From: Saprospiraceae bacterium
GTDB taxonomy: Bacteria > Bacteroidota > Bacteroidia > Chitinophagales > Saprospiraceae
Assembly: GCA_035326365.1 (NCBI GenBank)
Contig: DAOLFJ010000010.1
Location: 1,657-33,656, forward strand
Length of the DNA: 32,000 nt
Direction: 5' to 3'
Part shown: positions 12,289 through 25,210 of the stretch, piece after piece
Position numbering within the stretch: the first letter of the stretch is position 1
How the letters are laid out: the number at the start of each line of letters is the position of its first letter
The notes under the pieces: generated by a model
Told to the model about the DNA's origin: nothing
The model's input: only the letters and a program-made list of their open reading frames with translations
Database searches by the model: none
Position numbers and translations under genes: made by a program

Positions 12289-12912
12289 ATGATTATATTT
12301 GATCAAACAAATATTAATATGCACATTGATACTGATTTATTAATCGCTTATGGGGCAGTAGCTAGAAAATATGATAAAGGTGAATTTATCTTTTATGAAG
12401 GGGATCAATGCCGTTTTTATTACCAATTATTAGAAGGAACGGTTAAAATGTGCAATTATAATGATGAAGGAAGGATCTTTATACAAGGTTTATTTAACGC
12501 AGGTGATAGCTTTGGTGAGCCGCCCCTTTTTATCAATGAATTGTACCCCGCTTGTGCACAAGCTGATACAAATGCCATCATTTACAAACTTTCTAAAGAT
12601 ACCTTGATGAAACTTCTGTCGGATTACCCAATATTGCAGATGCAGTTTATTACCAATTTTGCTCACCGTCTGTTTGAAAAATCTTCTACTAATAAAAACA
12701 TTATCAGTCCTCATCCAGAAGATAGAATTATTGGATTTCTAAAGAAGTACAAAAAGGAAAAAAGTAACGGCATCGATAAAATAATCATCCCATATACTCG
12801 TCAACAAATATCTGATTTTCTAGGATTAAGGGTAGAAACAGTTATTAGGACAATTATAAAAATGAACGAAGAAGGAAAATTGGAAATAAGAAAACATAAA
12901 TTGTATTATTGA
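12289..12912 (+). CDS. Crp/Fnr-family transcriptional regulator (no Fe-S Cys cluster; Dnr/NnrR/HcpR-like class)
   Basis: 207 aa. cNMP-binding-type beta-roll (FYEGDQCRFYYQLLEGTVKM...GDSFGEPPLF) plus C-terminal HTH RQQISDFLGLRVETVIRTI, with an FNR-like V-E-T-x-x-R recognition helix. There is only one Cys in the N-terminal region. Confidence 0.85.
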   Translation: MIIFDQTNINMHIDTDLLIAYGAVARKYDKGEFIFYEGDQCRFYYQLLEGTVKMCNYNDEGRIFIQGLFNAGDSFGEPPLFINELYPACAQADTNAIIYKLSKDTLMKLLSDYPILQMQFITNFAHRLFEKSSTNKNIISPHPEDRIIGFLKKYKKEKSNGIDKIIIPYTRQQISDFLGLRVETVIRTIIKMNEEGKLEIRKHKLYY

Positions 12913-12913
12913 A

Positions 12914-14134
12914 ATGAATGTAATTAAAAATGATTTTTTTGTACGAATGTCATTAATCAATCTCACGTTAGTGGCTCTCATTGGTACTTTAATGAGGTAT
13001 AAGATTGGGTTTGAATTTCCATTTTTTAGCCAGAAATATCTGTTACATGCACACTCTCATTTCGCTTTTTCTGGATGGGTGACACATACATTATTCACAT
13101 TAATGGTATTAAGTTTAAATGATCAGATTAAAAAGCCTAAATTATTTAACAAAATCATCATAGCAAATTTAATTTGCGCATTCGGAATGTTGATTGCATT
13201 TATCATCCAAGGTTATGGTGGAATTTCTATCACTTTTTCCTCCCTTTCTGTTTTTATAGGGTATTTTTATGCCTATTATTTTTACCAAGAACTAAAATCA
13301 ATTCCTAGTCATCCATCCCATCAATGGTTTAAGGCGGCTTTAATCTTTAATGTCTTGTCGTCTCTGGGTACATTTTATCTAGCCTATATGATGGCTTCTA
13401 AGCACATTGATCAGCATGCTTACTTAGGCTCTGTTTACTTTTATTTACACTTTCAGTATAGTGGCTGGTTCTTTTTTGCCATAATGGGGCTCATTATTCA
13501 TAAGCTCCATGTCTTGCCATCTTTCCGTTACGATTCTAAACTGTTTTATGCTTTTTTTGTAGCTTGTATTCCAGCCTACTTTCTTTCTATTCTTTGGGCA
13601 GATTTGCCGTGGTATCTTTTTATATTTCCTATTGCCGCTGTTATATTGCAACTATATGGTTTAACACTATTCCTAAAAATGATTAAAAGACATCTTGGTG
13701 ATATTGTATTAAATTGGGCATTTGCCGTAAAGTGGCTATTGGGTTTGTCACTTGCCGCATTGATCATCAAATTATCATTACAAGCAGGGAGTATATTTCC
13801 TGAAGTAAGCAAAATGGCCTTTGGGTTTAGGTCTATCGTTATTGCTTATTTACATTTAGTTTTACTGGGATTTACGACGTTGTTTTTGTTGGGCTATATG
13901 CTTTTGGAAGGTCATATAGCACACCATAAAAAGGCAATAAATGCATTGGTCATTTTTAGTGTTGGTGTCTTTGGTAATGAATTTGCATTGATGGTACAAG
14001 GTGTAGCATCTTTTGGTTATATCTTGATTCCATGCATTAATGAAATTCTATTTGTAATCAGTCTTTTCATGCTTTTAAGTCTAATTGGGTTGGTTTGTTT
14101 TTACAGGAAAATACCAAGAAATGATGCTTTATGA
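12914..14134 (+). CDS. polytopic (about 12 TM) membrane protein with three spaced H-x4-G-W/F motifs; NnrS-like role is speculative
   Basis: 406 aa, starting 1 nt after the regulator's stop. Motifs are HAHSHFAFSGW (res 45-55), HFQYSGW (res 179-185) and HLVLLGF (res 314-320), spaced about 130-135 aa apart. Confidence 0.6.
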   Translation: MNVIKNDFFVRMSLINLTLVALIGTLMRYKIGFEFPFFSQKYLLHAHSHFAFSGWVTHTLFTLMVLSLNDQIKKPKLFNKIIIANLICAFGMLIAFIIQGYGGISITFSSLSVFIGYFYAYYFYQELKSIPSHPSHQWFKAALIFNVLSSLGTFYLAYMMASKHIDQHAYLGSVYFYLHFQYSGWFFFAIMGLIIHKLHVLPSFRYDSKLFYAFFVACIPAYFLSILWADLPWYLFIFPIAAVILQLYGLTLFLKMIKRHLGDIVLNWAFAVKWLLGLSLAALIIKLSLQAGSIFPEVSKMAFGFRSIVIAYLHLVLLGFTTLFLLGYMLLEGHIAHHKKAINALVIFSVGVFGNEFALMVQGVASFGYILIPCINEILFVISLFMLLSLIGLVCFYRKIPRNDAL

Positions 14135-14839: not shown

Positions 14840-14858
14840 TCAATCTTACGTGATGTAT

Positions 14859-14872
14859 ATGATTTATATCAC
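14859..14872. promoter_or_regulatory. FNR-spaced box ATGAT-TTAT-ATCAC inside a larger inverted repeat CGTGAT-N13-ATCACG (14849-14873)
   Basis: Same TATGAT-N4-RTCA pattern as 12199-12213. It lies about 35-55 nt upstream of the -7 box at 14907-14914. Confidence 0.3.
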
Positions 14873-14906
14873 GATTGAGAACTTAATAATTATGACAGAA
14901 TATAGT

Positions 14907-15304: not shown

Positions 15305-15393
15305 ACTTTAGCCTTCAAAAATCATATTCCTTAACCATTGTCTATAGCTTAAATTTAATGCTAAATAAATTTAAAATTGGTCAATAATATTAG

Positions 15394-15415
15394 TGGATAT
15401 ATTTGTCCATTATTA
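15394..15415 (+). promoter_or_regulatory. 22-nt box TGGATATATTTGTCCATTATTA (copy A), palindromic core TGGA-N8-TCCA
   Basis: Identical to the minus-strand sequence at 24438-24417, in the same orientation relative to the downstream genes. It overlaps the -33 TTTG of the predicted promoter. Confidence 0.6.
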
Positions 15416-15433
15416 TATTTATACATATCTTTG
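15402..15433 (+). promoter_or_regulatory. Bacteroidota-type promoter (-33 TTTG, 20-nt spacer, -7 TATCTTTG) for the 15476-19750 operon
   Basis: TTTG at 15402-15405 and TATCTTTG at 15426-15433 (an exact TAnnTTTG match), 43 nt upstream of ATG 15476. Confidence 0.45.
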
Positions 15434-15475
15434 GGCTTAATATTTATTTGATAAAGTATGTATAAAATATAATAT

Positions 15476-16015
15476 ATGAAACGTTGGTCGATGTTGATAT
15501 TGTTTTTCATATTGGTATCATATGGTGTTAATAGCCAAGATACTATACGAACAGAACTAAAGGTGATTTCAAAATTTGCTGGATATCACGTCGGTGTAGT
15601 ACAGATTTTATTTGCCCGCAATAATGGAGAGACCGTTTTTTTTAATAGAACGAGTATTTATTCTGTGGGATTTCCATTTGGTCTTACTTTTAACACATCT
15701 GGTAAAATTAAGATAGATCTAGAGATTGTGCCATTTATAAATCCATATATATATTCTGACAAAGCTTATGAAGTTCATTTATTATACCATCCTGGGATAC
15801 TTTATCCTTTAAGTAATGGATGGACACTCGGTCTGAGGACAGCATTTGAAATAGGGCAGGGCCAGTTTGGGTTTACACCATTAATTAATAAATCTTTTAA
15901 AAGAGATAAAGGTTCTATATTCTTTTTTGAAATTGTAGCCCCTGGTCGCTTTGGTCCTGAAAAAACATCTGGTTATACCCAGTTAGGAGGAATTCATATT
16001 GGTTTTTGTATTTAA
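15476..16015 (+). CDS. secreted small beta-rich protein, possible outer-membrane beta-barrel, unknown function
   Basis: 179 aa. Signal peptide MKRWSMLILFFILVSYGVNSQ, alternating hydrophobic pattern, aromatic/Gly-rich C-terminus. No family recognised. Confidence 0.55.
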   Translation: MKRWSMLILFFILVSYGVNSQDTIRTELKVISKFAGYHVGVVQILFARNNGETVFFNRTSIYSVGFPFGLTFNTSGKIKIDLEIVPFINPYIYSDKAYEVHLLYHPGILYPLSNGWTLGLRTAFEIGQGQFGFTPLINKSFKRDKGSIFFFEIVAPGRFGPEKTSGYTQLGGIHIGFCI

Positions 16016-16061: not shown

Positions 16062-16796
16062 ATGAACATAAATAATCATTCAATCATTGGTGACATCGTA
16101 GCTCACAATTTTAAAACAGCTGAAATTTTTAGATCATATGGAGTTGATTTTTGTTGTAAGGGCAACAGGGCTTTAGATGATCTCGCGAAGAGTGAGAATT
16201 TGGATATATCAAGACTTATCATAGAGCTAGAGTCTATGAGTTCCGTAAGTAGTAATTCACCTATTGACTTTAAATCATGGCCTTTGGATTTGTTGGCTGA
16301 TTATATCGAGAAGACATATCATCGGTATATAGAAGAGAAAACCCCAATAATTAATGAGTATCTCTTGAAAGTGCGCAACGTACATGGACATAGACATCCA
16401 GAGTTGTATAAAATTCATGAAATCTTCGTAGCATCTACATCTGACTTATTTAGTCATATGAAGAAAGAAGAAAATATATTATTTCCATGTATAAGACAAA
16501 TGGTAACTGACGAAAGAAACAAGGTTGTTTACAAGTCTCCTGCTTTTGGAAGTATAAAAAATCCAATCAATATGATGATGGAAGAACACTTGACAGAGGG
16601 AGATCGATATAGAGAAATATCAACTTTATCAAATAACTATTCACCTCCAAATGATGCTTGTAATACATATTTAGTTGCATTCGGCATGTTAAATGAGTTT
16701 GAACTCAAGCTTCATGAGCATATTCACTTAGAGAATAATATTCTTTTTCCAAGTGCGATAAAATCTGAAGAAATACTGGCTAATAAGGTGAACTAG
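16062..16796 (+). CDS. ric: iron-sulfur cluster repair di-iron protein (RIC / ScdA / YtfE / DnrN family)
   Basis: 244 aa. N-terminal ScdA-type motif GVDFCCKGNRAL plus hemerythrin-like His/Glu helices (HRYIEEKT, HGHRHPEL, MMEEHLTEGD, HEHIHLENNILFP). Confidence 0.9.
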   Translation: MNINNHSIIGDIVAHNFKTAEIFRSYGVDFCCKGNRALDDLAKSENLDISRLIIELESMSSVSSNSPIDFKSWPLDLLADYIEKTYHRYIEEKTPIINEYLLKVRNVHGHRHPELYKIHEIFVASTSDLFSHMKKEENILFPCIRQMVTDERNKVVYKSPAFGSIKNPINMMMEEHLTEGDRYREISTLSNNYSPPNDACNTYLVAFGMLNEFELKLHEHIHLENNILFPSAIKSEEILANKVN

Positions 16797-18932
16797 ATGA
16801 ATGCACAACAATTTGTTATAAAGAGAAATGGTGAATACCAAATATTTTGGGATTTTAAAATTAAGGATGCCATTCAAAAGGCTTTTGATAGTGTTTCCGA
16901 AGGTATTTACGATGATGATTTTGATAAGGTATTTGATAAAGTCATGATATCAATATATTCAATACCTGTTATTTCCGTAGAAGAAATTCAGGATGTCATC
17001 GAAAAAGTATTGTATGAATTGCATTACTTTAATGCGATGAGGAGTTTTATGTTATATCGTCACACTCGGAAAATGCAAAGGGAACATGTTAATGGGCTGA
17101 TAGATGATACCACTTTTATAGATAGCACTCACGCTATAGAGGAATATATTGATGGAACAGATTGGCGTATTAATGCCAATGCAAATACTTCTTATTCCAA
17201 TGCAGGTTTGATAAATAACGTTTCCGGTAAAATTATTGCTAATTATTGGTTAGATAAAATTTATTCTAAAGAAGAGGGTTTTGCACATAGAAACGGAGAT
17301 ATACATATTCATGATCTCGATAGTTTGACCGGTTACTGTGCCGGTTGGAGTCTTCGGGTATTACTCAATGAGGGATTTAATGGCGTGAGGGGAAGAGTCG
17401 AGAGTCGGCCACCTAATCATTTTAGAGAGGCACTTGGCCAAATGGCTAATTTTCTCGGTATTCTTCAGAGCGAGTGGGCTGGGGCACAAGCTTTCAGTTC
17501 GTTTGATACTTATTTGGCACCATATGTTTTTAAGGATAATCTGGAGTATCAGGACATACTGAAAGCTATAAGAAGTTTCATATATAACCTAAATGTGCCC
17601 GCTAGGTGGGGACAGTCTCCATTTACAAATATCACTCTTGACTGGGTAGTGCCAGAAGATTTGAAACCACAGTTTCCTTCTAGAAATGATCGTCATCTCT
17701 TCGAAAATATTATAGATATCACTTTACTTGAAAAAGCCAATTCATTTGGGTTATGTTCCCTTACGGAAATGTGTTATGTTCATTTCCAAAGAGAAATGGA
17801 TTTAATTAATAAAGCTTTTTATCAAGTAATGACCGAAGGTGACGCGCATGGACAACCATTTACTTTTCCCATACCGACGGTCAATATCACTGAAGATTTT
17901 GATTGGTATGGCGAGAATACCGATATTTTATTTGAAAATACTGCAAAAATAGGTTCTTCTTACTTTCAGAATTTTGTAGGCAGTCAATATATGTTTGATA
18001 GTGGTGGGAAAAAGGTTGAAAATCCATTTGCATATAAGCCAAATGCGGTCAGAAGTATGTGCTGTAGATTACAGCTGGATCTTAGAGAATTGCTCAAAAG
18101 AGGTAACGGGTTATTTGGCAGTGCTGAAATGACAGGAAGTATTGGTGTAGTCACGATAAACATGGCTAGACTTGGATACATTTTCGCTGGCAATAAGAAC
18201 AAATTATTTGAGAAATTGGATCAATTGTTGATGATAGGTAAGTCCACGCTTGAAAAAAAGAGATCCTTTGTACAGCAAATGTTTGACCGAGGCTTATACC
18301 CCTACACAAAAAGATATCTCACAGGGTTTAAAAATCACTTTTCTACTATTGGTGTGAATGGAATGAATGAAATGATACTAAATTTCTCTAAAAACAAATA
18401 TGATATAAGTACCAAGAAAGGTATTTTATTTGCGGAAGAAATTCTTGATTATATTCGGCTAAGGTTAAAAGAATTTCAGGAAGATACAGGTAATCTATAT
18501 AATCTAGAAGCAACGCCTGCTGAAGGTACAACCTATCGTTTTGCAAAAGAAGATATTAAAAGATTTCCCAATATAATTCAAGCAGGCGATAATGAGCATA
18601 TTTATTATACCAATAGTTCGCAATTATCAGTAGATTATACGGATGATCCATTTGAAGCTTTGCTATTACAGGATAACTTACAGTGCAAATATACGGGTGG
18701 CACAGTGTTACATCTTTATATGAGCGAAAAAATTAATAACGCTGAATCATGTAGAAATTTTGTAAAAAAAGTCATAACAAATTTCAGACTCCCATACATA
18801 ACAGTGACGCCTCTTTTCAGTATTTGTCCTGTGCATGGATATCTAAATGGAGAGCATGATTTTTGTCATCTCTGCGATGATATATTATTAGAAAAATTAA
18901 ATTCACAAAAATATGAACTTGGTCAAAAGTAA
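16797..18932 (+). CDS. nrdD: anaerobic ribonucleoside-triphosphate reductase (class III), catalytic body; reading frame ends before the glycyl-radical motif
   Basis: 711 aa. The ATG directly abuts the ric stop (TAGATG). It has an ATP-cone-like N-terminus, a class III RNR core including SMCCRL, and the first half of the C-terminal Zn-ribbon (CPVHGYLNGEHDFCHLC). The RVxGY glycyl-radical motif is missing from this frame. Confidence 0.85.
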   Translation: MNAQQFVIKRNGEYQIFWDFKIKDAIQKAFDSVSEGIYDDDFDKVFDKVMISIYSIPVISVEEIQDVIEKVLYELHYFNAMRSFMLYRHTRKMQREHVNGLIDDTTFIDSTHAIEEYIDGTDWRINANANTSYSNAGLINNVSGKIIANYWLDKIYSKEEGFAHRNGDIHIHDLDSLTGYCAGWSLRVLLNEGFNGVRGRVESRPPNHFREALGQMANFLGILQSEWAGAQAFSSFDTYLAPYVFKDNLEYQDILKAIRSFIYNLNVPARWGQSPFTNITLDWVVPEDLKPQFPSRNDRHLFENIIDITLLEKANSFGLCSLTEMCYVHFQREMDLINKAFYQVMTEGDAHGQPFTFPIPTVNITEDFDWYGENTDILFENTAKIGSSYFQNFVGSQYMFDSGGKKVENPFAYKPNAVRSMCCRLQLDLRELLKRGNGLFGSAEMTGSIGVVTINMARLGYIFAGNKNKLFEKLDQLLMIGKSTLEKKRSFVQQMFDRGLYPYTKRYLTGFKNHFSTIGVNGMNEMILNFSKNKYDISTKKGILFAEEILDYIRLRLKEFQEDTGNLYNLEATPAEGTTYRFAKEDIKRFPNIIQAGDNEHIYYTNSSQLSVDYTDDPFEALLLQDNLQCKYTGGTVLHLYMSEKINNAESCRNFVKKVITNFRLPYITVTPLFSICPVHGYLNGEHDFCHLCDDILLEKLNSQKYELGQK

Positions 18933-19095
18933 CTCAATACTCGAAATGCATATAGAAAAAAGGACAAAATGTCTTGTTTACACAAGGGTGATGGGTTATC
19001 ATCGTCCTGTAGAAAGTTTTAATAAAGGAAAAAAAGGTGAACATAATCAGCGAACATATTTTAGACAACAAATTGAAGAGAAAGTCAATTTATAG
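18913..19095 (+). CDS. nrdD: NrdD C-terminal glycyl-radical segment displaced into the +1 frame
   Basis: The frame is open from 18901. It encodes ...EKRTKCLVYTRVMGYHRPVESFNKGKKGEHNQRTYF, the canonical class III RNR glycyl-radical tail (RVMGY). It overlaps the end of the 16797-18932 frame by 32 nt. Confidence 0.8.
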   Translation: MNLVKSNSILEMHIEKRTKCLVYTRVMGYHRPVESFNKGKKGEHNQRTYFRQQIEEKVNL

Positions 19096-19750
19096 TTTGA
19101 CGCCCTTCACGCTAATAGACTATCCCGATAAAACATCTTGTGTACTATGGTTTTCAGGCTGTAATATGAGGTGCGTCTATTGTTACAATCCTGAAATAGT
19201 GAAGGGTAAAGGGAATTATAATTTTTATGATATCATAGACTTTCTCGAATCTCGTAAAGGTCTGCTTGATGCCGTGGTCTTAAGTGGAGGCGAGTGTCTT
19301 TTGCATGATTCAGTAGTAGATATATTAATCGCCATAAAAAAAATAGGGTTTTTAGTAAAAATTGATACAAATGGTAGTAAACCAGACACTTTAAAGTACT
19401 TAATAGATCATTTATTAATTGATTATGTTTCGCTTGATTTTAAAGCTCTCCCGTACAAATATTATGAAATTACAGGTTCAGATTTTTATGATCATTTTAT
19501 CAGCTCATTGAGTATCATGCAGAATGCTACAATTGATTTTGAAGTTAGAACGACTATTCATTCATCTCTCTTTACAAAAACAGATTTAGAATCTATGATA
19601 GATATTTTATCTGGCTTAGGGTATAAAGGAAAGTACTTTCTTCAATATTTTCGCCCAGGTACAGGGACGCTTGGGAATTTAGGTGAATCAATTTTTGGAT
19701 CTAATTTGAAAGAAATGAATGGCAGGGGTATGGAATTAATATTTAGGTAA
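19037..19750 (+). CDS. nrdG: anaerobic ribonucleotide reductase activating protein (radical SAM)
   Basis: Contains the radical-SAM motif CNMRCVYC and SLTPFTLIDYPDK, typical of the NrdG N-terminus. The track start is a GTG at 19037. A TTG at 19073 (MKRKSIYSLTPF...) is an equally plausible start. Confidence 0.85.
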   Translation: MNIISEHILDNKLKRKSIYSLTPFTLIDYPDKTSCVLWFSGCNMRCVYCYNPEIVKGKGNYNFYDIIDFLESRKGLLDAVVLSGGECLLHDSVVDILIAIKKIGFLVKIDTNGSKPDTLKYLIDHLLIDYVSLDFKALPYKYYEITGSDFYDHFISSLSIMQNATIDFEVRTTIHSSLFTKTDLESMIDILSGLGYKGKYFLQYFRPGTGTLGNLGESIFGSNLKEMNGRGMELIFR

Positions 19751-19985
19751 ATTGTACATAAAATAAATTCTGAAGTCTTTGTTAAACCTAATCATAAGAC
19801 ATATTGGACTCTGCCAATTATCTTGTAATTTTACTTTAGTTTTTTACTTTGTCGAATAATTATTAGGCAATATCTTAAAAACAATGCATCTTGCTGGACG
19901 TTTAAAAAAGTACCATTGAATTATGGTCGAATTTTTGATATCATTAATTCTTATTATTGTTTTGACCATTAAAGAAAAAAAGAAT

Positions 19986-20417
19986 ATGTTTTCAAAAGCC
20001 TGTGAGTATGCCATAAGAGCATCTATATATATTGCATCACAAACGATAATAGGTAATCGAGTTAGTCTGATAGATGTATCTAATAAAATTGATTCGCCAG
20101 AAGCGTTTACTTCCAAAATTCTCCAAAAGCTTGTAAAATTTAAGATTATTCAATCAATAAAAGGACCTAGAGGTGGGTTTGAAATAGAGAAAAACAAAAT
20201 GGAAGCTATCAACTTGAAGATGATTGTGGAAGCTTTTGAAGGAGATGTTTTAAATAGATGTAGTTTAGGACTTAATGAATGTTCGGATATGCATCCATGC
20301 CCATTTCATTATAAATACAAACCTATAAAACAAAATTTAATCCATATTTTTGAATCAACTAATTTAATTGATTTAATTCGACAAGATATAGAAGACCCTA
20401 CGTTTCTAAAAAAATAA
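19986..20417 (+). CDS. Rrf2-family transcriptional regulator with three-Cys cluster site (NsrR/IscR-like)
   Basis: 143 aa from ATG 19986 (MFSKACEYAIRASIYIA... winged HTH). C-x6-C-x5-C in NRCSLGLNECSDMHPCPFH. The 21-codon N-terminal extension in the track is hydrophobic junk. Confidence 0.85.
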   Translation: MFSKACEYAIRASIYIASQTIIGNRVSLIDVSNKIDSPEAFTSKILQKLVKFKIIQSIKGPRGGFEIEKNKMEAINLKMIVEAFEGDVLNRCSLGLNECSDMHPCPFHYKYKPIKQNLIHIFESTNLIDLIRQDIEDPTFLKK

Positions 20418-20491: not shown

Positions 20492-22846
20492 TTAGAGGGC
20501 CTTATTTATTTTGTCAGAAATAGGATCCATTTGTTCAATTGCAGTCACGGTAGATTTGAGGGATTTGATTCTAGTGACAATAAACCATGTCAATGGTATT
20601 ACACCTCCGAAGAAAAATACACTTGCCCCAATACCTCTCATCCAGGTAAGCTTATTGAATATGCCGTAATCAACAAATTCATGTGATCGACCATACCAAA
20701 GTCCTTGTTCTACAACTGCTTTAAATTGGATAGAACCCGCAGGAAAAAGATCAAGCACAACCATCAGCATTAGCCCAATATTGATGGACCAAAATGAGAA
20801 ATTGACTACTTTTTTATTCCAATGTTCTTCTTTTATCATAAGTCTAGAAGCAAACAAAAGTGCAGCTAATGAGATATTTCCATATACGCCCATTAGGGCT
20901 GCGTGTGCGTGATTCACAGTGAGATATGTCCCGTGTTCGAAGTAATTCATAATTGGAAGATTTATGATAATCCCTAATACTCCGGCGCCGAAAAAATTCC
21001 AGAAATTAACGGCTATAAGAAATAGAAAAACTTCTGGAAACCCAAAGTTCCCAAAGTTTTTATGCTCTACACCACTTAACGCCATTTTCGGCATGTTTTT
21101 AAATCTATAAGCTTCTACTGTAAGTAGGATTAAAGGGACAAATTGTAGTGTGGAGAACACACTTCCCAATGCCATGGTAGCAACAGGTTTGGCGTTCCAG
21201 TAAAAATTATGCGATATACCTAGGAGTCCAGTACCGAGAAAAAGGATTGTTGCAAAATAAACTACTCTTATTGCTGCCTGCCTTGAAACTAATCCCATTA
21301 ATACCATCAAATAACTCACGATGACTGTGATAAAAACTTCAAAAAATGCTTCAACCCACATATGAATTACCATCCATCTCCAAAAATCAGCAATTACAAA
21401 ATTGGTTTCGGGCTTGGCGACGAAGCCTGATAAGAAAAGTAATGGAATACCAATAACGGAATACAATATCCAGTTGGGTAAATTCCAAGGTTCCTTTTTG
21501 ATTAATGCTGGTTTTATGCCACGATAAACTACGATCATCCATAATATAAATACACCCATTAGGATTACTTGAAAGCCTTTACCAAAATCTACAAACTCCC
21601 ATCCTTGATGTCCTAACCAGTACCACCACTCTCCCATTAATCCTAATGGACCTAAGATCATACCAGTAAGGGAGCCACCAACCAAAACAAAAAGCATAAT
21701 GAACAATATATTAATCAAACGTAGCTGACCAGGTAATTCCTTTTTTGATAATATAGGTAGAATGAAAATAGAAGATGCAATCCAACAAGTAGATATCCAA
21801 TACAGGGACAGCATAAGATGCCAACTTCTAGATATAGTGACGGGGAAACTATCATTTATTTCTATTCCAAAAAAACCAAGCCAATTGACAAAATCATTGA
21901 TTGTAATCAACCCGCTAGATACCTGAAGGAAAAATAAAAGAATCGCTACAAAAAAGAATTTGAACGTAGCTTTTTGAGTAGGGGTAGGAGAAAAATCTTT
22001 TACTCTTTCTTCTGAAAATAAATCTTTGGTGGCTGGTTTGAAGAATTTATTTGGCAATTGATTATATTGACCAATAAAATATAATACTATACCGCACATT
22101 AAAACAAAGGCTAATAGACCTAAGACACTCCATAAAATAACAGGTGAAGTGGGAGCGTTTCCAGAACTTGGGTCGAATGGCCAATTATGAGTATAACTAT
22201 AATTTTCTCCAGGCCGTTCAGTCACGCAGACCCAAGCACCCCAGAAAAAAAATGAGCTTAGGTCCTTCACTTCTTCTAGACCTTTTATATAGCCTTTGGG
22301 CAATGAACCAACTCCTACCTTATTATTGTTATATATATTTATATAATATTGCTGTACACTTTGATGGGCATAAACTTGGGCAGGAGTAAGGACTACCAAA
22401 CCAGTTGTTTTATCATAGCGGTTTTCTTTAAGCTCTTGTTTTACTTTTTCTTTAATTTGTTTTCTTTCTAGCTCATCGGGCCGAGAACCATTTAAAGTAT
22501 GATATTCATTTGCATAGTATTCTGACATGGCTAAAGATGTTTGATGCAAAGCTTCTGCTGTAAAATCAGGTCCTCTTTGGGCCCCATCGCCAAAGAAGCT
22601 ACCATATTCCATCAGTGCATATTTATGAAATACTTCCTGGCCGTGCTCAATAGTTTTCTGGTCAAAAATCAGATTGTTTTTTTCATCACTAAACCCAGCC
22701 ATTGGTGGAGCATCGATGTATGTTTGATACCCGATCATTCCTACGCCAAGTAAACTGATGACAAGTATAAATGTCAAAGGTCCCCACCAGGTTTTGGTGT
22801 TCATAATATAACTTATACTTTTAGACCCATTGTTTTGAGCTTCCAT
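20492..22846 (-). CDS. norB: quinol-dependent nitric oxide reductase, single-subunit qNor (NorZ-type NorB)
   Basis: 784 aa. N-terminal TM helix plus a periplasmic extension of about 200 aa fused to a heme-copper-oxidase-like 12-TM core with His-bearing helices (HNWPF, HMWVEAFFE, HNFYWN, NHAHAALMGVYG). Confidence 0.9.
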   Translation of the reverse strand: MEAQNNGSKSISYIMNTKTWWGPLTFILVISLLGVGMIGYQTYIDAPPMAGFSDEKNNLIFDQKTIEHGQEVFHKYALMEYGSFFGDGAQRGPDFTAEALHQTSLAMSEYYANEYHTLNGSRPDELERKQIKEKVKQELKENRYDKTTGLVVLTPAQVYAHQSVQQYYINIYNNNKVGVGSLPKGYIKGLEEVKDLSSFFFWGAWVCVTERPGENYSYTHNWPFDPSSGNAPTSPVILWSVLGLLAFVLMCGIVLYFIGQYNQLPNKFFKPATKDLFSEERVKDFSPTPTQKATFKFFFVAILLFFLQVSSGLITINDFVNWLGFFGIEINDSFPVTISRSWHLMLSLYWISTCWIASSIFILPILSKKELPGQLRLINILFIMLFVLVGGSLTGMILGPLGLMGEWWYWLGHQGWEFVDFGKGFQVILMGVFILWMIVVYRGIKPALIKKEPWNLPNWILYSVIGIPLLFLSGFVAKPETNFVIADFWRWMVIHMWVEAFFEVFITVIVSYLMVLMGLVSRQAAIRVVYFATILFLGTGLLGISHNFYWNAKPVATMALGSVFSTLQFVPLILLTVEAYRFKNMPKMALSGVEHKNFGNFGFPEVFLFLIAVNFWNFFGAGVLGIIINLPIMNYFEHGTYLTVNHAHAALMGVYGNISLAALLFASRLMIKEEHWNKKVVNFSFWSINIGLMLMVVLDLFPAGSIQFKAVVEQGLWYGRSHEFVDYGIFNKLTWMRGIGASVFFFGGVIPLTWFIVTRIKSLKSTVTAIEQMDPISDKINKAL

Positions 22847-22995: not shown

Positions 22996-24396
22996 TTATT
23001 TTTTCCAAGGTAAATTATTTACAGCTCTTCCTATTTCTGTGCCAAATCTAACACCCTCTTCAGCATCCATTCTGAAGTGTACTCCTAAAGGAACTCGAGA
23101 CCAAGCATTTTCTTGAGCCATCTCATAAAAACTAGAAAAAGTCCTAGGATAGCCGCTAAATTCAGGTCTATTTTTATGGCAATTGTCCGTCATACTGTAA
23201 CTATAACCAAAGACACTAGCCAAAGCTTCAGCTGACGATGCACTGAAAGTTGCGTGGCCTGATGGATATGCTGGAAAAGATGGTGTGATACCTTGATCAC
23301 CGGTAAGTGGATTATCTAAATTTGGTGTCCAACTAGGGTCTATTATTCTGTTAATATAGGTCTGTGGACGTTCTAAATTATAAAAGTATTTTGAATTCCA
23401 ACATGCGATACCAGCATCATGGAGCGCCAAACCAACTTTTGCGTTCGCGACGATAGCTTCTTCTAGGCTTGCCTTTTCGTTAACATATACCTGATCTGCT
23501 ATTGCAATCCAACGTGACGGAGGGCTGAATGTCAATCCTAATAAATCATCACTCCAAAACTCACCCAACCATTCAGCTTGATAAGATAATGAAGGTGTAT
23601 TTTGTGCCATTACTTCTATGGCCATTGCATAAAGTCCTGATTTTGGATCTTCACTATATGGTGCATAATATGAATAAGGTCGACAGAGTTTTTGGTCTTC
23701 ATTTATGGCTAAAGTTCTACCTTTCCCCCAATAGGGAAACATTCCAGCCCCAGGTCCAGGATAGGTAGCTATCCAGTCACCATCTTTTTTGTAATGGTCC
23801 TCCCATTTATAATCTTCAAAAACATTTTTGTATTTATCAAAGGTAGCTTGATCTGTTTTCATCCATTCCCACACTGCGGTAGCAACTGCCTCTCCATGGT
23901 ATTTGGATCGCAAAAATACTTCTTGAGTTATTTCTTTTGTGAATTTATTTTCATTTTCTAAAGAAAGTGTATTAATTTTATAAAACAACTCAGCTGCTAC
24001 TTCCGCAAATAATCTACTATACAAATATGTGTTAACAGAATTCACGACTGTAGGCCAATGGTATTCTTGGTTTTGATTTATAGAAGGAATTTTTAATCCA
24101 TTATAAAGGTTTGAAATTGATTTATAACTAGACATGCCTGATACACAAGCTTCATAATTAGCAAGGCCTACATAGCCAAGTGAATTAGAGACAGGTCCCG
24201 GTCTATATCCTGCTGCATGTCTTTCTATTTCAAGCCATAGGGTATTCCATTCATGAATAATATTGTAGTCAAATTGATCTACACTTTTAAAATTGAGATT
24301 ATTATCGCTATTAATATCTTTTTTGCAGGAAGAAAAAATCGCTATAATTATTAAGTAAGAGGTAATAATAGTTGGGAATTTAAACTTAGTGAACAT
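22996..24396 (-). CDS. PAP2-superfamily / vanadium-dependent-haloperoxidase-like lipoprotein
   Basis: 466 aa from ATG 24396 (MFTKFKFPTIITSYLIIIAIFSSC lipobox). The track start at 24429 is a TTG lying inside the 22-nt box. All three PAP2 motifs are intact: KYFYNLERP (Kx6RP), PSGH (YPSGHATFS) and SRVPLGVHFRMD (SRx5Hx3D). Confidence 0.8.
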   Translation of the reverse strand: MFTKFKFPTIITSYLIIIAIFSSCKKDINSDNNLNFKSVDQFDYNIIHEWNTLWLEIERHAAGYRPGPVSNSLGYVGLANYEACVSGMSSYKSISNLYNGLKIPSINQNQEYHWPTVVNSVNTYLYSRLFAEVAAELFYKINTLSLENENKFTKEITQEVFLRSKYHGEAVATAVWEWMKTDQATFDKYKNVFEDYKWEDHYKKDGDWIATYPGPGAGMFPYWGKGRTLAINEDQKLCRPYSYYAPYSEDPKSGLYAMAIEVMAQNTPSLSYQAEWLGEFWSDDLLGLTFSPPSRWIAIADQVYVNEKASLEEAIVANAKVGLALHDAGIACWNSKYFYNLERPQTYINRIIDPSWTPNLDNPLTGDQGITPSFPAYPSGHATFSASSAEALASVFGYSYSMTDNCHKNRPEFSGYPRTFSSFYEMAQENAWSRVPLGVHFRMDAEEGVRFGTEIGRAVNNLPWKK

Positions 24397-24416
24397 ATTG
24401 GTTTTATTTAAAATAT

Positions 24417-24438
24417 TAATAATGGACAAATATATCCA
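24417..24438 (-). promoter_or_regulatory. 22-nt box TGGATATATTTGTCCATTATTA (copy B), centre of a 36-bp near-perfect palindrome (24413-24448)
   Basis: The plus strand reads ATATTAATAATGGA-CAAATATA-TCCATTATTATTAT (13 of 14 arm positions pair). The box ends 20 nt upstream of ATG 24396. Confidence 0.6.
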
Positions 24439-24653
24439 TTATTATTATAACTAGGTAGTTTTATTTTATTTATTTTATTATAATCATCTAATTTAAGTTT
24501 ATTCAAAAATGAATCATGTTAGCACTGTTGCATCTTAGCGCCTCCAAACCATTTTATTTGTAATAAAGACAATACTAATAAAGAGCAAAACATAAGCTCA
24601 AAGATTTCAATTTTAGAGACTATATTATACAAATAAAAGGGAGAGTTTTAGAA

Positions 24654-24765: not shown

Positions 24766-25155
24766 TCAAATATCTCTACCTAATTGGGGAATATCATTTC
24801 CAATAATTTTTAATTGCATGATTGACGCTATGCTTTTAGCTCTTTCTTTGAGTAGCGTTGTCTTCTCACCTGTAAATAGTTCTTCCACAGATACATAAAA
24901 TAAGGATAGCCATCTCTCAAAATGGGCTGCTGTCATAGGATATCGAGCATTAGCCATTTGGTGTTTGGCCATAGGATTACCCGTATAATTGCCAGTATAA
25001 AAGAGCACGTTGTCCCAAAAATCATACATAACGGGCAAATGTTTTTGCCAATCTACGTGATCAAACATAAAGCCTATCATATCATCTTGTCTCACTTTGT
25101 CGTAAAAGCTATTCACCACGATTTCTATGTCCTGACGATTTTCTATATCCCTCAT
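24766..25155 (-). CDS. truncated (2-on-2) bacterial globin
   Basis: 129 aa from ATG 25155 (the track start at 25179 is a TTG). Contains FYDKVRQDDMIGFMF, FWDNVLFYTGNYTGNPM and HFERWLSLF, typical of the bacterial truncated-hemoglobin family. Confidence 0.7.
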   Translation of the reverse strand: MRDIENRQDIEIVVNSFYDKVRQDDMIGFMFDHVDWQKHLPVMYDFWDNVLFYTGNYTGNPMAKHQMANARYPMTAAHFERWLSLFYVSVEELFTGEKTTLLKERAKSIASIMQLKIIGNDIPQLGRDI

Positions 25156-25210
25156 CTTAAATATTTTTTGATTGATCAAATTTGGTTGAATATACAGGAG
25201 CGCTGCAAAT

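Follow-up and report, generated by a model that had tools for sequence, protein, structure and literature searches.

A conserved palindromic box at two promoters of a Saprospiraceae denitrification island and its predicted Rrf2-family regulator

Why two promoters about 9 kb apart should carry exactly the same 22 nucleotides (nt) is the question raised by a 32,000-nt stretch of Saprospiraceae DNA (NCBI GenBank assembly GCA_035326365.1, contig DAOLFJ010000010.1, positions 1,657 to 33,656; the whole stretch is called the window hereafter), which Pfam and NCBIfam matches mark as a denitrification and nitric oxide (NO)-stress island. One of the promoters precedes the gene of a 179-residue protein followed by ric, nrdD and nrdG, the other that of a PAP2-type lipoprotein followed by the quinol-dependent NO reductase (qNor) gene, and an Rrf2-family regulator is encoded between the two operons. 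From the comparison of this box across related loci, we consider it likely that the 22-mer is a near-consensus operator of this Rrf2 protein, whose holo-dimer would occlude the core promoter until NO or iron-sulfur (Fe-S) damage releases it.

The two boxes and their conservation

The 22-mer, TGGATATATTTGTCCATTATTA, occurs in exact copies at 15394-15415 on the forward strand and at 24417-24438 on the reverse strand, as a preliminary description of this DNA had it, and a search of the window allowing up to 3 mismatches returned no third match. Each copy is oriented toward its downstream operon, also as described before, at 67 nt from the ATG at 15476 that opens the gene of the 179-residue protein and at 20 nt from the true PAP2 ATG at 24396. 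Two copies were reached in 0 of 100 dinucleotide shuffles of the window, which bears out the earlier expectation of an identity beyond chance. Copy 2 forms an inverted repeat with 14-nt arms, 93% complementarity and an 8-nt spacer (24413-24448), and the symmetry of copy 1 is limited to a perfect TGGA/TCCA plus partly symmetric flanks. Because the bare core TGGA-N8-TCCA occurs in the window at chance level, with no enrichment, the significance lies in the full box and in its conservation elsewhere.

Conservation was followed in 80 loci with 10-kb flanks, collected by a qNor-based search at one genome per species (cited here by L numbers) and coming mostly from metagenome-assembled genomes of Saprospiraceae and Chitinophagales, with some Flavobacteriaceae isolates. 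The box recurs at orthologous promoters of Saprospiraceae, Chitinophagales and Flavobacteriaceae whose proteins are merely 40-88% identical. From 22 distinct sites we derived a 30-nt position weight matrix (PWM), whose consensus reads ATAATAAT-GGATATATTTGTCC-ATTATTAA, or AATAAT-GGATATATTTGTCC-ATTATT in a dyad form of ~26 bp. It was scanned over the 80 loci and the window (~1.4 Mb), and the regulon described here is that seen at these loci. At a threshold of at least 14 bits there were 92 matches against 0-1 per block-shuffled replicate, and at a threshold of at least 22 bits there were 54 against 0. None fell inside the matched genes, and nearly all are found shortly before the 179-residue protein gene/ric/nrdDG, PAP2-qNor, globin or Rrf2 genes and in the orientation of these genes, some being divergent from Rrf2; the genes that follow boxes include those of qNor, RIC, truncated globin, hemerythrins and norCB. 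Among 14 aligned PAP2 promoters, the sole invariant block besides the ATG lies inside the box, and the box is likewise the conserved block among 9 aligned promoters of the 179-residue protein. Enrichment upstream of NO genes and conservation in orthologous promoters, both of which the preliminary description had left to comparison, are thus present.

Within the window the PWM matches the two boxes only. Box 1, the predicted ~26 bp dyad operator upstream of the operon of the 179-residue protein, covers 15389-15414 on the forward strand with its core, GGATATATTTGTCC, at 15395-15408; it scores 42.9 bits and its orthologous position is kept in L001-L005, L007, L008, L019, L031 and L069. Box 2, the predicted ~26 bp dyad operator upstream of PAP2-qNor, covers 24418-24443 on the reverse strand with its core at 24424-24437; it scores 45.4 bits and is identical to the 30-nt family consensus, to which box 1 is close. 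The exact identity of the two copies, which includes the non-palindromic spacer and the 3' flank, could also be read as the trace of a recent duplication or gene conversion between two promoters that share no regulator. However, the identity stops at the box edges, both copies match the cross-genome consensus, and where a relative's genome carries two boxes these differ in spacer and flanks with the arms kept, so that we give a duplication next to no credence. The 22-nt identity is probably explained by both sites sitting at the family consensus, and gene conversion would not be required.

A dispersed repeat was also ruled out, as the PWM matches at the 80 loci are confined to one gene set. 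A metagenome-wide scan for WGGATATATTTGTCCW is uninformative about the regulon: it returned at least 120 loci, and the matches listed are essentially all due to chance, in unrelated and mostly coding DNA (e.g., the DIFVH codons of a cold-shock protein in L089), with none beside NO genes.

Tandem boxes, two or three in number and ~24-52 bp apart, were seen in L069 (7870-7937), L019 (7871-7914), L031 (7888-7925) and L026 (8303-8368), which suggests cooperative or multi-dimer binding; in L019, L031 and L069 the region is shared with a divergent tryptophanase-like gene.

Arms, centre and core promoter

Across the sites, the constant arms are GGA and TCC, more generally rGAy-N6-rTCy, and the site in L079 is a perfect palindrome, GGACAAATTTGTCC. 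Flanks that were not used in site selection are mirror-symmetric as well, with AATA at -5 to -2 facing TTAT(T) at +16 to +20, and this symmetry implies a dyad of ~26 bp. The inverted repeat noted earlier is real at both copies, then, with the correction that the conserved core is rGAy-N6-rTCy within a ~26 bp dyad and not an 11-2-11 palindrome.

The tetranucleotide TTTG is the -33 consensus of Bacteroidota promoters. The centre of the box, TAnnTTTG, equals the Bacteroidota sigma-A -7 consensus, an element that spans -12 to -5 in Flavobacterium (PMC9723704). The box spacer is a perfect TAnnTTTG and the spacings fit a functional promoter of this kind, whereas GGA/TCC and the symmetric AT-rich arms are no promoter features. 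The predicted promoters agree with the sigma-A layout, in which a -7 TAnnTTTG at a plausible distance from the start codon is preceded by a -33 TTTG 17-23 nt upstream of it; a sigma-70 promoter scan is not applicable to Bacteroidota promoters and its result was not used.

The two boxes appear to fall on different elements. At the promoter of the 179-residue protein, the TTTG inside box 1 (15402-15405, forward strand) is most readily taken for the -33 element. A second TAnnTTTG, TATCTTTG at 15426-15433 on the same strand, follows 20 nt downstream and is the predicted sigma-A -7 element, with a predicted transcription start at ~15438; this arrangement is kept in the six group-A loci aligned (the window and L001-L005). 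In orthologous promoters of the gene the second TAnnTTTG is kept as TATATTTGC, 19-20 nt after the TTTG of the box. At PAP2-qNor, the box-2 spacer itself, TATATTTG (24427-24434, reverse strand), is the predicted -7 element, with a predicted transcription start at ~24422 and a 26-nt leader. The G of its TTTG stands 31-37 nt from the ATG in 15 of 16 PAP2 promoters (23 nt in L018), and most PAP2 loci have another TTTG 18-21 nt upstream of the TA; because both distances fit, the spacer is taken as the -7 element here. At certain other box sites a mere 16-18 nt separate this G from the ATG, too few to allow a -33 role at those sites. The operator is predicted to lie on a core promoter element at both promoters, and the boxes upstream of qNor, RIC, globin and norCB operons fall on predicted -7 or -33 elements. 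The overlap with a -33 TTTG that the preliminary description had reported stands for copy 1 and gives way at copy 2 to the -7 element TAnnTTTG.

As the most conserved stretch of the box, TATATTTG, is the sigma-A -7 consensus, one may ask whether the box amounts to no more than an unusually strong or extended core promoter, or is bound by an unlinked factor, for instance an alternative sigma factor, its linkage to Rrf2 being coincidental. We regard this as very unlikely, given that GGA/TCC and the symmetric flanks are outside the sigma-A consensus, that the motif is confined to one functional gene set and one Rrf2 clade, and that the arms persist where the centre is no promoter element. The last situation is met in the Rrf2-nadAB promoters of Flavobacteriaceae, which preserve the arms rGAC..GTCy but have a variable, GC-rich spacer between them, with the -7 box placed directly behind the site. 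Because the arms persist there around a variable spacer, we read the arms as the operator, the centre being conserved solely where it also serves as a promoter element. Such a free centre matches the structure of ScNsrR on DNA, in which the central 7 bp are without base contacts and freely changeable (PMC9338935).

A palindrome may instead work at the RNA level, as a hairpin in the 5' leader that alters stability or translation, with no DNA operator involved. Both copies do fold in silico, with 7-12 pairs and z-scores of -3.2 and -4.0, and the outer positions are often complementary; yet any DNA palindrome folds in this way, and a scan of the whole window against Rfam gave no RNA family match. 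In 10 of 49 distinct sites the arms read AGA..TCC, which leaves an A-C mismatch, so that base identity is kept and not pairing. With the TAnnTTTG of the box as -7 element, most of the hairpin would be untranscribed at PAP2, and the tracking of the box with Rrf2 subgroups would be left unexplained. A role as hairpin is extremely improbable on these grounds.

The Rrf2 protein as proposed binder

Besides conservation, position and symmetry, the box displays co-occurrence and co-variation with one clade of Rrf2 proteins. Rrf2 homologues at these loci fall into subgroups, of which A, B and C have a common recognition helix, SPxxFTxKILQ, and F is found in Flavobacteriaceae. Counting a box as present from 20 bits upward, we see one in 32 of the 33 loci whose Rrf2 is of type A, B, C or F, against 4 of the 48 loci lacking such an Rrf2 (Fisher p ~5e-17, kinship ignored); the single A/B/C/F-type locus without a box has lost the promoter at a contig end. 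The symmetric outer bases of the box follow the Rrf2 subgroup and its recognition helix, being T..A in A, A..T in B and C..G in F, and many Rrf2 genes have a box in their own or divergent promoter.

The association extends to an out-of-sample set of Rrf2 homologues (55-57% identity), which were picked by sequence alone. In Sphingobacteriaceae, the promoter of an Rrf2-globin-RIC operon contains a box of 27 bits with a -7 box behind it; in Fluviicola (L205/L206), box-like sites lie between Rrf2 and a divergently oriented nadAB-...-norCB operon; and in Flavobacteriaceae the Rrf2 promoters of four Rrf2-nadA-nadB operons show rGAC-N6-GTCy, always at one fixed position. Sites of the GGACATATTTGTCC type also stand upstream of hemerythrin genes in 3 of 5 full-length nadAB loci. 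Together with the symmetry of the flanks and the co-variation with Rrf2 subgroup, these loci provide support that is independent of the PWM training set. The divergent operon of Fluviicola runs nadA, nadB, two beta-eliminating lyases, and further on norC/norB-like genes.

Another Rrf2 subgroup, D, has the helix ISFHFLTKTFQ and 31-38% identity, and is encoded directly upstream of qNor (L009, L011-L016, L020-L025, L027, L030, L035, L037-L039, L045-L049, L054, L055, L062, L064, L066, L067). Its own promoters have a related but distinct operator, TAnnTTTG-GGACAAAnTTGTCTTAA, directly after the -7 box (e.g., tagTTTTGGGACAAAATTGTCTTAAATA).

In the window, the proposed binder of both boxes is encoded at 19986-20417 on the forward strand, a protein of 143 residues with its true start at MFSKACEY and a match to PF02082 (E = 2.4e-19). 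The generic rrf2_super is the only Rrf2-type NCBIfam model above its curated cutoff; the NsrR model NF008240 gives 32.1 bits against a cutoff of 182, and the IscR models TIGR02010 and NF008110 give 55 against 207.55 and 28.9 against 275. The C-x6-C-x5-C cluster site that had been recognised earlier in this protein between the operons is borne out, its cysteines being invariant in 19 diverse homologues along with a histidine that extends the motif to C-x6-C-x5-C-x2-H (C92, C99, C105, H108). C99, C105 and H108 align with C98, C104 and H107 of IscR, with the first cysteine offset by one residue. Glu7 is present in subgroups A-C and is not invariant across the clade, H108 being invariant instead; the cluster ligands of ScNsrR are three cysteines and Asp8 (PMC5411485). 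A single-sequence search of the PDB found no match, and a profile of the 19 homologues matched IscR, RsrR, CymR and NsrR there about equally (E = 1e-11 to 1e-13) and is non-discriminating. As judged from its sequence, the regulator would combine an NsrR-like regulon with an IscR-like Cys3-His ligand motif and be an orthologue of neither.

The mechanism we propose is as follows. An Rrf2 dimer is proposed to recognise both arms of a ~26 bp dyad, AATAnn-GGAyA..TTTGTCC-nTTATT, with the core rGAy-N6-rTCy and AT-rich flanks, leaving the central 6-8 bp unread and free to hold sigma-A elements. At PAP2-qNor this centre would be the -7 box TAnnTTTG and the operator would extend from ~-21 to +5; at the operon of the 179-residue protein, RIC, NrdD and NrdG it would be the -33 TTTG, with the operator core at ~-43 to -30. 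Bound holo-Rrf2 would block RNA polymerase, and loss or nitrosylation of the Fe-S cluster, through NO or general Fe-S damage, would release it, so that NO reductase, RIC, anaerobic ribonucleotide reductase and the accessory genes would be switched on together. Within this scheme, DNA binding by the protein, its acting as repressor and not activator, the cluster type and the role of NO as signal are inferred.

Such a scheme has much in common with NsrR of E. coli, Neisseria, Bacillus and Streptomyces, which is likewise an Rrf2 winged-helix dimer with three conserved cysteines; its operator, also a dyad, sits across the core promoter of genes for NO defence (ytfE/ric, norB, haemoglobins), an overlap predicted for the present box from sequence. 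The linkage of the regulator gene to its targets is shared too, as is the unread operator centre (PMC9338935). In contrast, the operator here is rGAy-N6-rTCy and that of NsrR gATGyAT-N5-ATrCATc (PMC1274295); the window has 4 matches to the latter with up to 3 mismatches, where 7.7 are expected, and none at the two promoters. The window Rrf2 is non-orthologous to NsrR, having an invariant, IscR-like histidine after the third cysteine and no invariant equivalent of Asp8, and its regulon differs by including qNor with the PAP2 lipoprotein, nrdDG and, in relatives, nadAB. The NsrR-like repressor of the preliminary description is therefore supported comparatively as to role, with the box as operator of the local Rrf2, and is to be given up as to orthology with NsrR. 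IscR shares the Cys3-His ligand pattern, and automatic annotation at JGI labels some homologues IscR-like, whereas the Rrf2 here scores below the NCBIfam IscR cutoffs, with its first cysteine offset. The box is unlike the type 1 or type 2 sites of IscR.

The Crp/Fnr-family regulator encoded at 12289-12912 on the forward strand (identified with Pfam) had been named as the alternative binder, and could act on the box in the manner of the activators DNR or NnrR. HcpR is the known NO regulator of this family in Bacteroides and Porphyromonas, and HcpR, DNR and NnrR all control NO stress or denitrification through short palindromes. In the window, as in the six closest relatives, 2.5 kb separate box 1 from the Crp/Fnr gene upstream of it, and both the palindrome length of 16 bp and the centre at ~-37 of the 179-residue protein promoter would suit such an activator. 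However, a Crp/Fnr gene is found within 10 kb in 7 of 36 box-bearing loci and absent from 29, with no sign of co-occurrence. The arms GGA-N8-TCC (GAC-N6-GTC) are 2 bp further apart than the TGA-N6-TCA / GAC-N4-GTC of CRP, FNR and HcpR (e.g., TTGAT-N4-ATCAA, TTGAC-N4-GTCAA; PMC1274295), and the boxes lie on -7 or -33 elements, as over the -7 element at PAP2 ~31-37 nt from the ATG, where activator sites of this family lie near -41.5. The FNR-type TTGA-N6-TCAA is not enriched in the window and absent from the two promoters; as remarked earlier, the sequence of the box differs from those of NsrR, FNR and NrdR sites. We consider binding by the Crp/Fnr protein highly improbable and do not count it as part of the system.

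Several observations weigh against the reading of the box as an NO-responsive repressor site of the Rrf2 protein. The loci scanned with the PWM belong to the family that served to train it, the co-occurrence statistics are uncorrected for phylogeny, and the box-bearing loci L009, L041, L052 and L053 have no matching Rrf2 within 10 kb. The promoter region of the window Rrf2 itself (19751-19985) contains no full box, at best a half-site-like TTTTGACCATTA. Among cultured Flavobacteriaceae, the nearest Rrf2 homologues (L204, L209-L213; Salinimicrobium and relatives, 55-57% identity) stand at the head of nadA-nadB operons, and the invariant Cys3-His motif resembles that of IscR and not that of NsrR; because of these two points the effector could be Fe-S or redox status and not NO specifically. 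We found no link of Rrf2 to NAD biosynthesis in the literature searched. Finally, the box centre near -37 at the 179-residue protein promoter is a position also compatible with class-II activation.

The Rrf2 protein may thus bind the box and follow another logic, sensing Fe-S/iron, oxygen or redox as do IscR, RirA and RsrR, or activating one of the promoters. Beyond the aligned IscR residues and the activator-compatible position, this would accommodate the nadA-nadB operons, NadA being an Fe-S enzyme, and the presence of nrdDG in the regulon. Still, the genes after boxes are dominated by NO-specific functions (qNor, norCB, RIC, globin), no isc or suf gene turned up in the window or behind any box at the loci examined, and at several promoters, that of PAP2 included, the -7 element lies under the box, a position that fits repression only. 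We judge such a different logic unlikely, and retain release of an Rrf2 repressor by NO or Fe-S damage as the probable one. More tentatively, a Bacteroidota-wide clade of Cys3-His Rrf2 proteins, apart from NsrR and IscR, could be a sensor of NO or Fe-S damage that has gone unrecognised, with an operator rGAy-N6-rTCy built around the sigma-A -7 and -33 elements.

The regulon and its neighbourhood

On the forward strand, the island runs through the genes of Crp/Fnr, a 406-residue membrane protein, a fasciclin and a heavy-metal-associated (HMA) protein to box 1, the 179-residue protein, RIC, NrdD, NrdG and Rrf2; on the reverse strand are qNor, the PAP2 lipoprotein, box 2, a truncated globin, nosYFDL and nosZ. 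An identical gene is carried by the ENA contig ERZ794916 NODE_426 and by a fragment in GCA_035328645.1 (uncultured Saprospiraceae).

The ric-nrdDG operon described before is present, with the amendment that the transcription unit is that of the 179-residue protein, ric, nrdD and nrdG and starts at the ATG at 15476. Its first gene (15476-16015, forward strand) encodes a signal-peptide protein of 179 residues for which Pfam and NCBIfam searches gave no match. Homologues occur in L001-L005, L008, L016-L019, L031, L040, L060, L061, L065, L069 and L076, and are repeatedly encoded by the first gene after the box, before ric(-nrdDG) or before PAP2-qNor; the protein is a candidate for a new NO-related envelope protein. 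RIC/YtfE, the di-iron Fe-S repair protein, follows at 16062-16796 on the same strand (TIGR03652, 225.9 bits against a cutoff of 204.7), and then the class III ribonucleotide reductase genes at 16797-19750, comprising the nrdD body (16797-18932), a 60-residue glycyl-radical open reading frame (ORF; 18913-19095) and nrdG (19037-19750), all on the forward strand.

NrdD is split in this locus. An ORF of 711 residues covers positions 4-649 of the 684-position NCBIfam model, and the glycyl-radical motif (RTKCLVYTRVMGYHRPV) is found in the separate 60-residue ORF, which lies in another frame, has its own methionine, covers model positions 649-683 and overlaps the start of nrdG. Since an equal split with different linker sequences is found in four relatives (L001, L004, L005, L009), it is a conserved feature, no artefact of assembly. 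Possible explanations are a two-polypeptide class III reductase, a GrcA-like 'spare part' or programmed frameshifting.

In the operon of box 2, both genes of which lie on the reverse strand, the first (22996-24396) encodes a PAP2/vanadium-haloperoxidase-like lipoprotein with matches to Pfam PAP2 and, weakly, VCPO_2nd. Its true start is the ATG at 24396, where the lipoprotein signal peptide begins; the mechanical ORF list gives a TTG at 24429. The second gene (20492-22846) encodes qNor (Pfam NorB_cytochrome_c-like and COX1). A PAP2/VCPO-like lipoprotein of ~465 residues is encoded directly upstream of qNor in the same operon in many Saprospiraceae/Chitinophagales genomes and at most of the loci L001-L080.

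The truncated globin gene (24766-25179) has no box of at least 14 bits in the window. In relatives a box precedes the gene in L046 (17890) and L047 (13464), and in L207 (10897) the globin gene stands within an Rrf2 operon; with boxes in L046 and L047 and none in the window, its membership of the regulon varies by lineage. The mechanically called TTG start of the globin is probably too far upstream, the methionine at codon 9 being the more likely start. The 406-residue membrane protein (12914-14134), which has no family match and follows the Crp/Fnr gene in the window, adjoins Rrf2 genes of another subgroup, or RIC, elsewhere (L010, L030, L045-L048, L057), and may be another NO-associated gene.

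Two further palindromes were noted. The first, CGTGATGTATAT-G-ATTTATATCACG at 14849-14873 (25 bp, 12-1-12, 83% complementary), lies ~100 nt upstream of the HMA gene (14975), is the best partial match in the window to the canonical NsrR motif (2 mismatches) and may be the site of a different regulator. The second, ATTCA-TTTT-TGAAT at 24501-24514 on the reverse strand, lies ~75 bp upstream of box 2 and has the 5-N4-5 geometry of FNR-type sites; it is not conserved across the aligned PAP2 promoters.

In the literature searched, with RegPrecise-type databases outside that search, we found neither an Rrf2/NsrR operator of Bacteroidota nor an Rrf2-nadAB regulator, so that the suggestion of an undescribed Bacteroidota operator apparently holds. 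Rrf2 genes near clade II nos clusters have been noted, with role unknown (PMC6264515), and the survey of Rodionov (2005) covers Proteobacteria and Firmicutes. What is new is the operator sequence and the embedding of phylum-specific promoter elements in it; an Rrf2 Fe-S repressor with a promoter-overlapping dyad is of a known kind. As the mechanism is of the expected sort, the value lies in annotation and hypothesis generation and not in conceptual surprise, although the box would be a clear example of an operator whose unread centre holds phylum-specific promoter elements.

Saprospiraceae and Flavobacteriia abound in activated sludge and in sediments and, because they carry qNor and clade II nosZ, influence NO and N2O fluxes, while how Bacteroidota control these genes has hardly been characterised. 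A defined operator with its cognate Rrf2 clade would make NO-responsive regulons predictable from metagenome-assembled genomes, and would point to conserved unknown genes that are co-regulated with NO reductase. If the reading of a Bacteroidota-wide Rrf2 clade is true, its regulon would mark the 179-residue secreted protein, the PAP2/VCPO-like lipoprotein, the two-piece NrdD and NadAB as new accessory factors of NO defence or denitrification.

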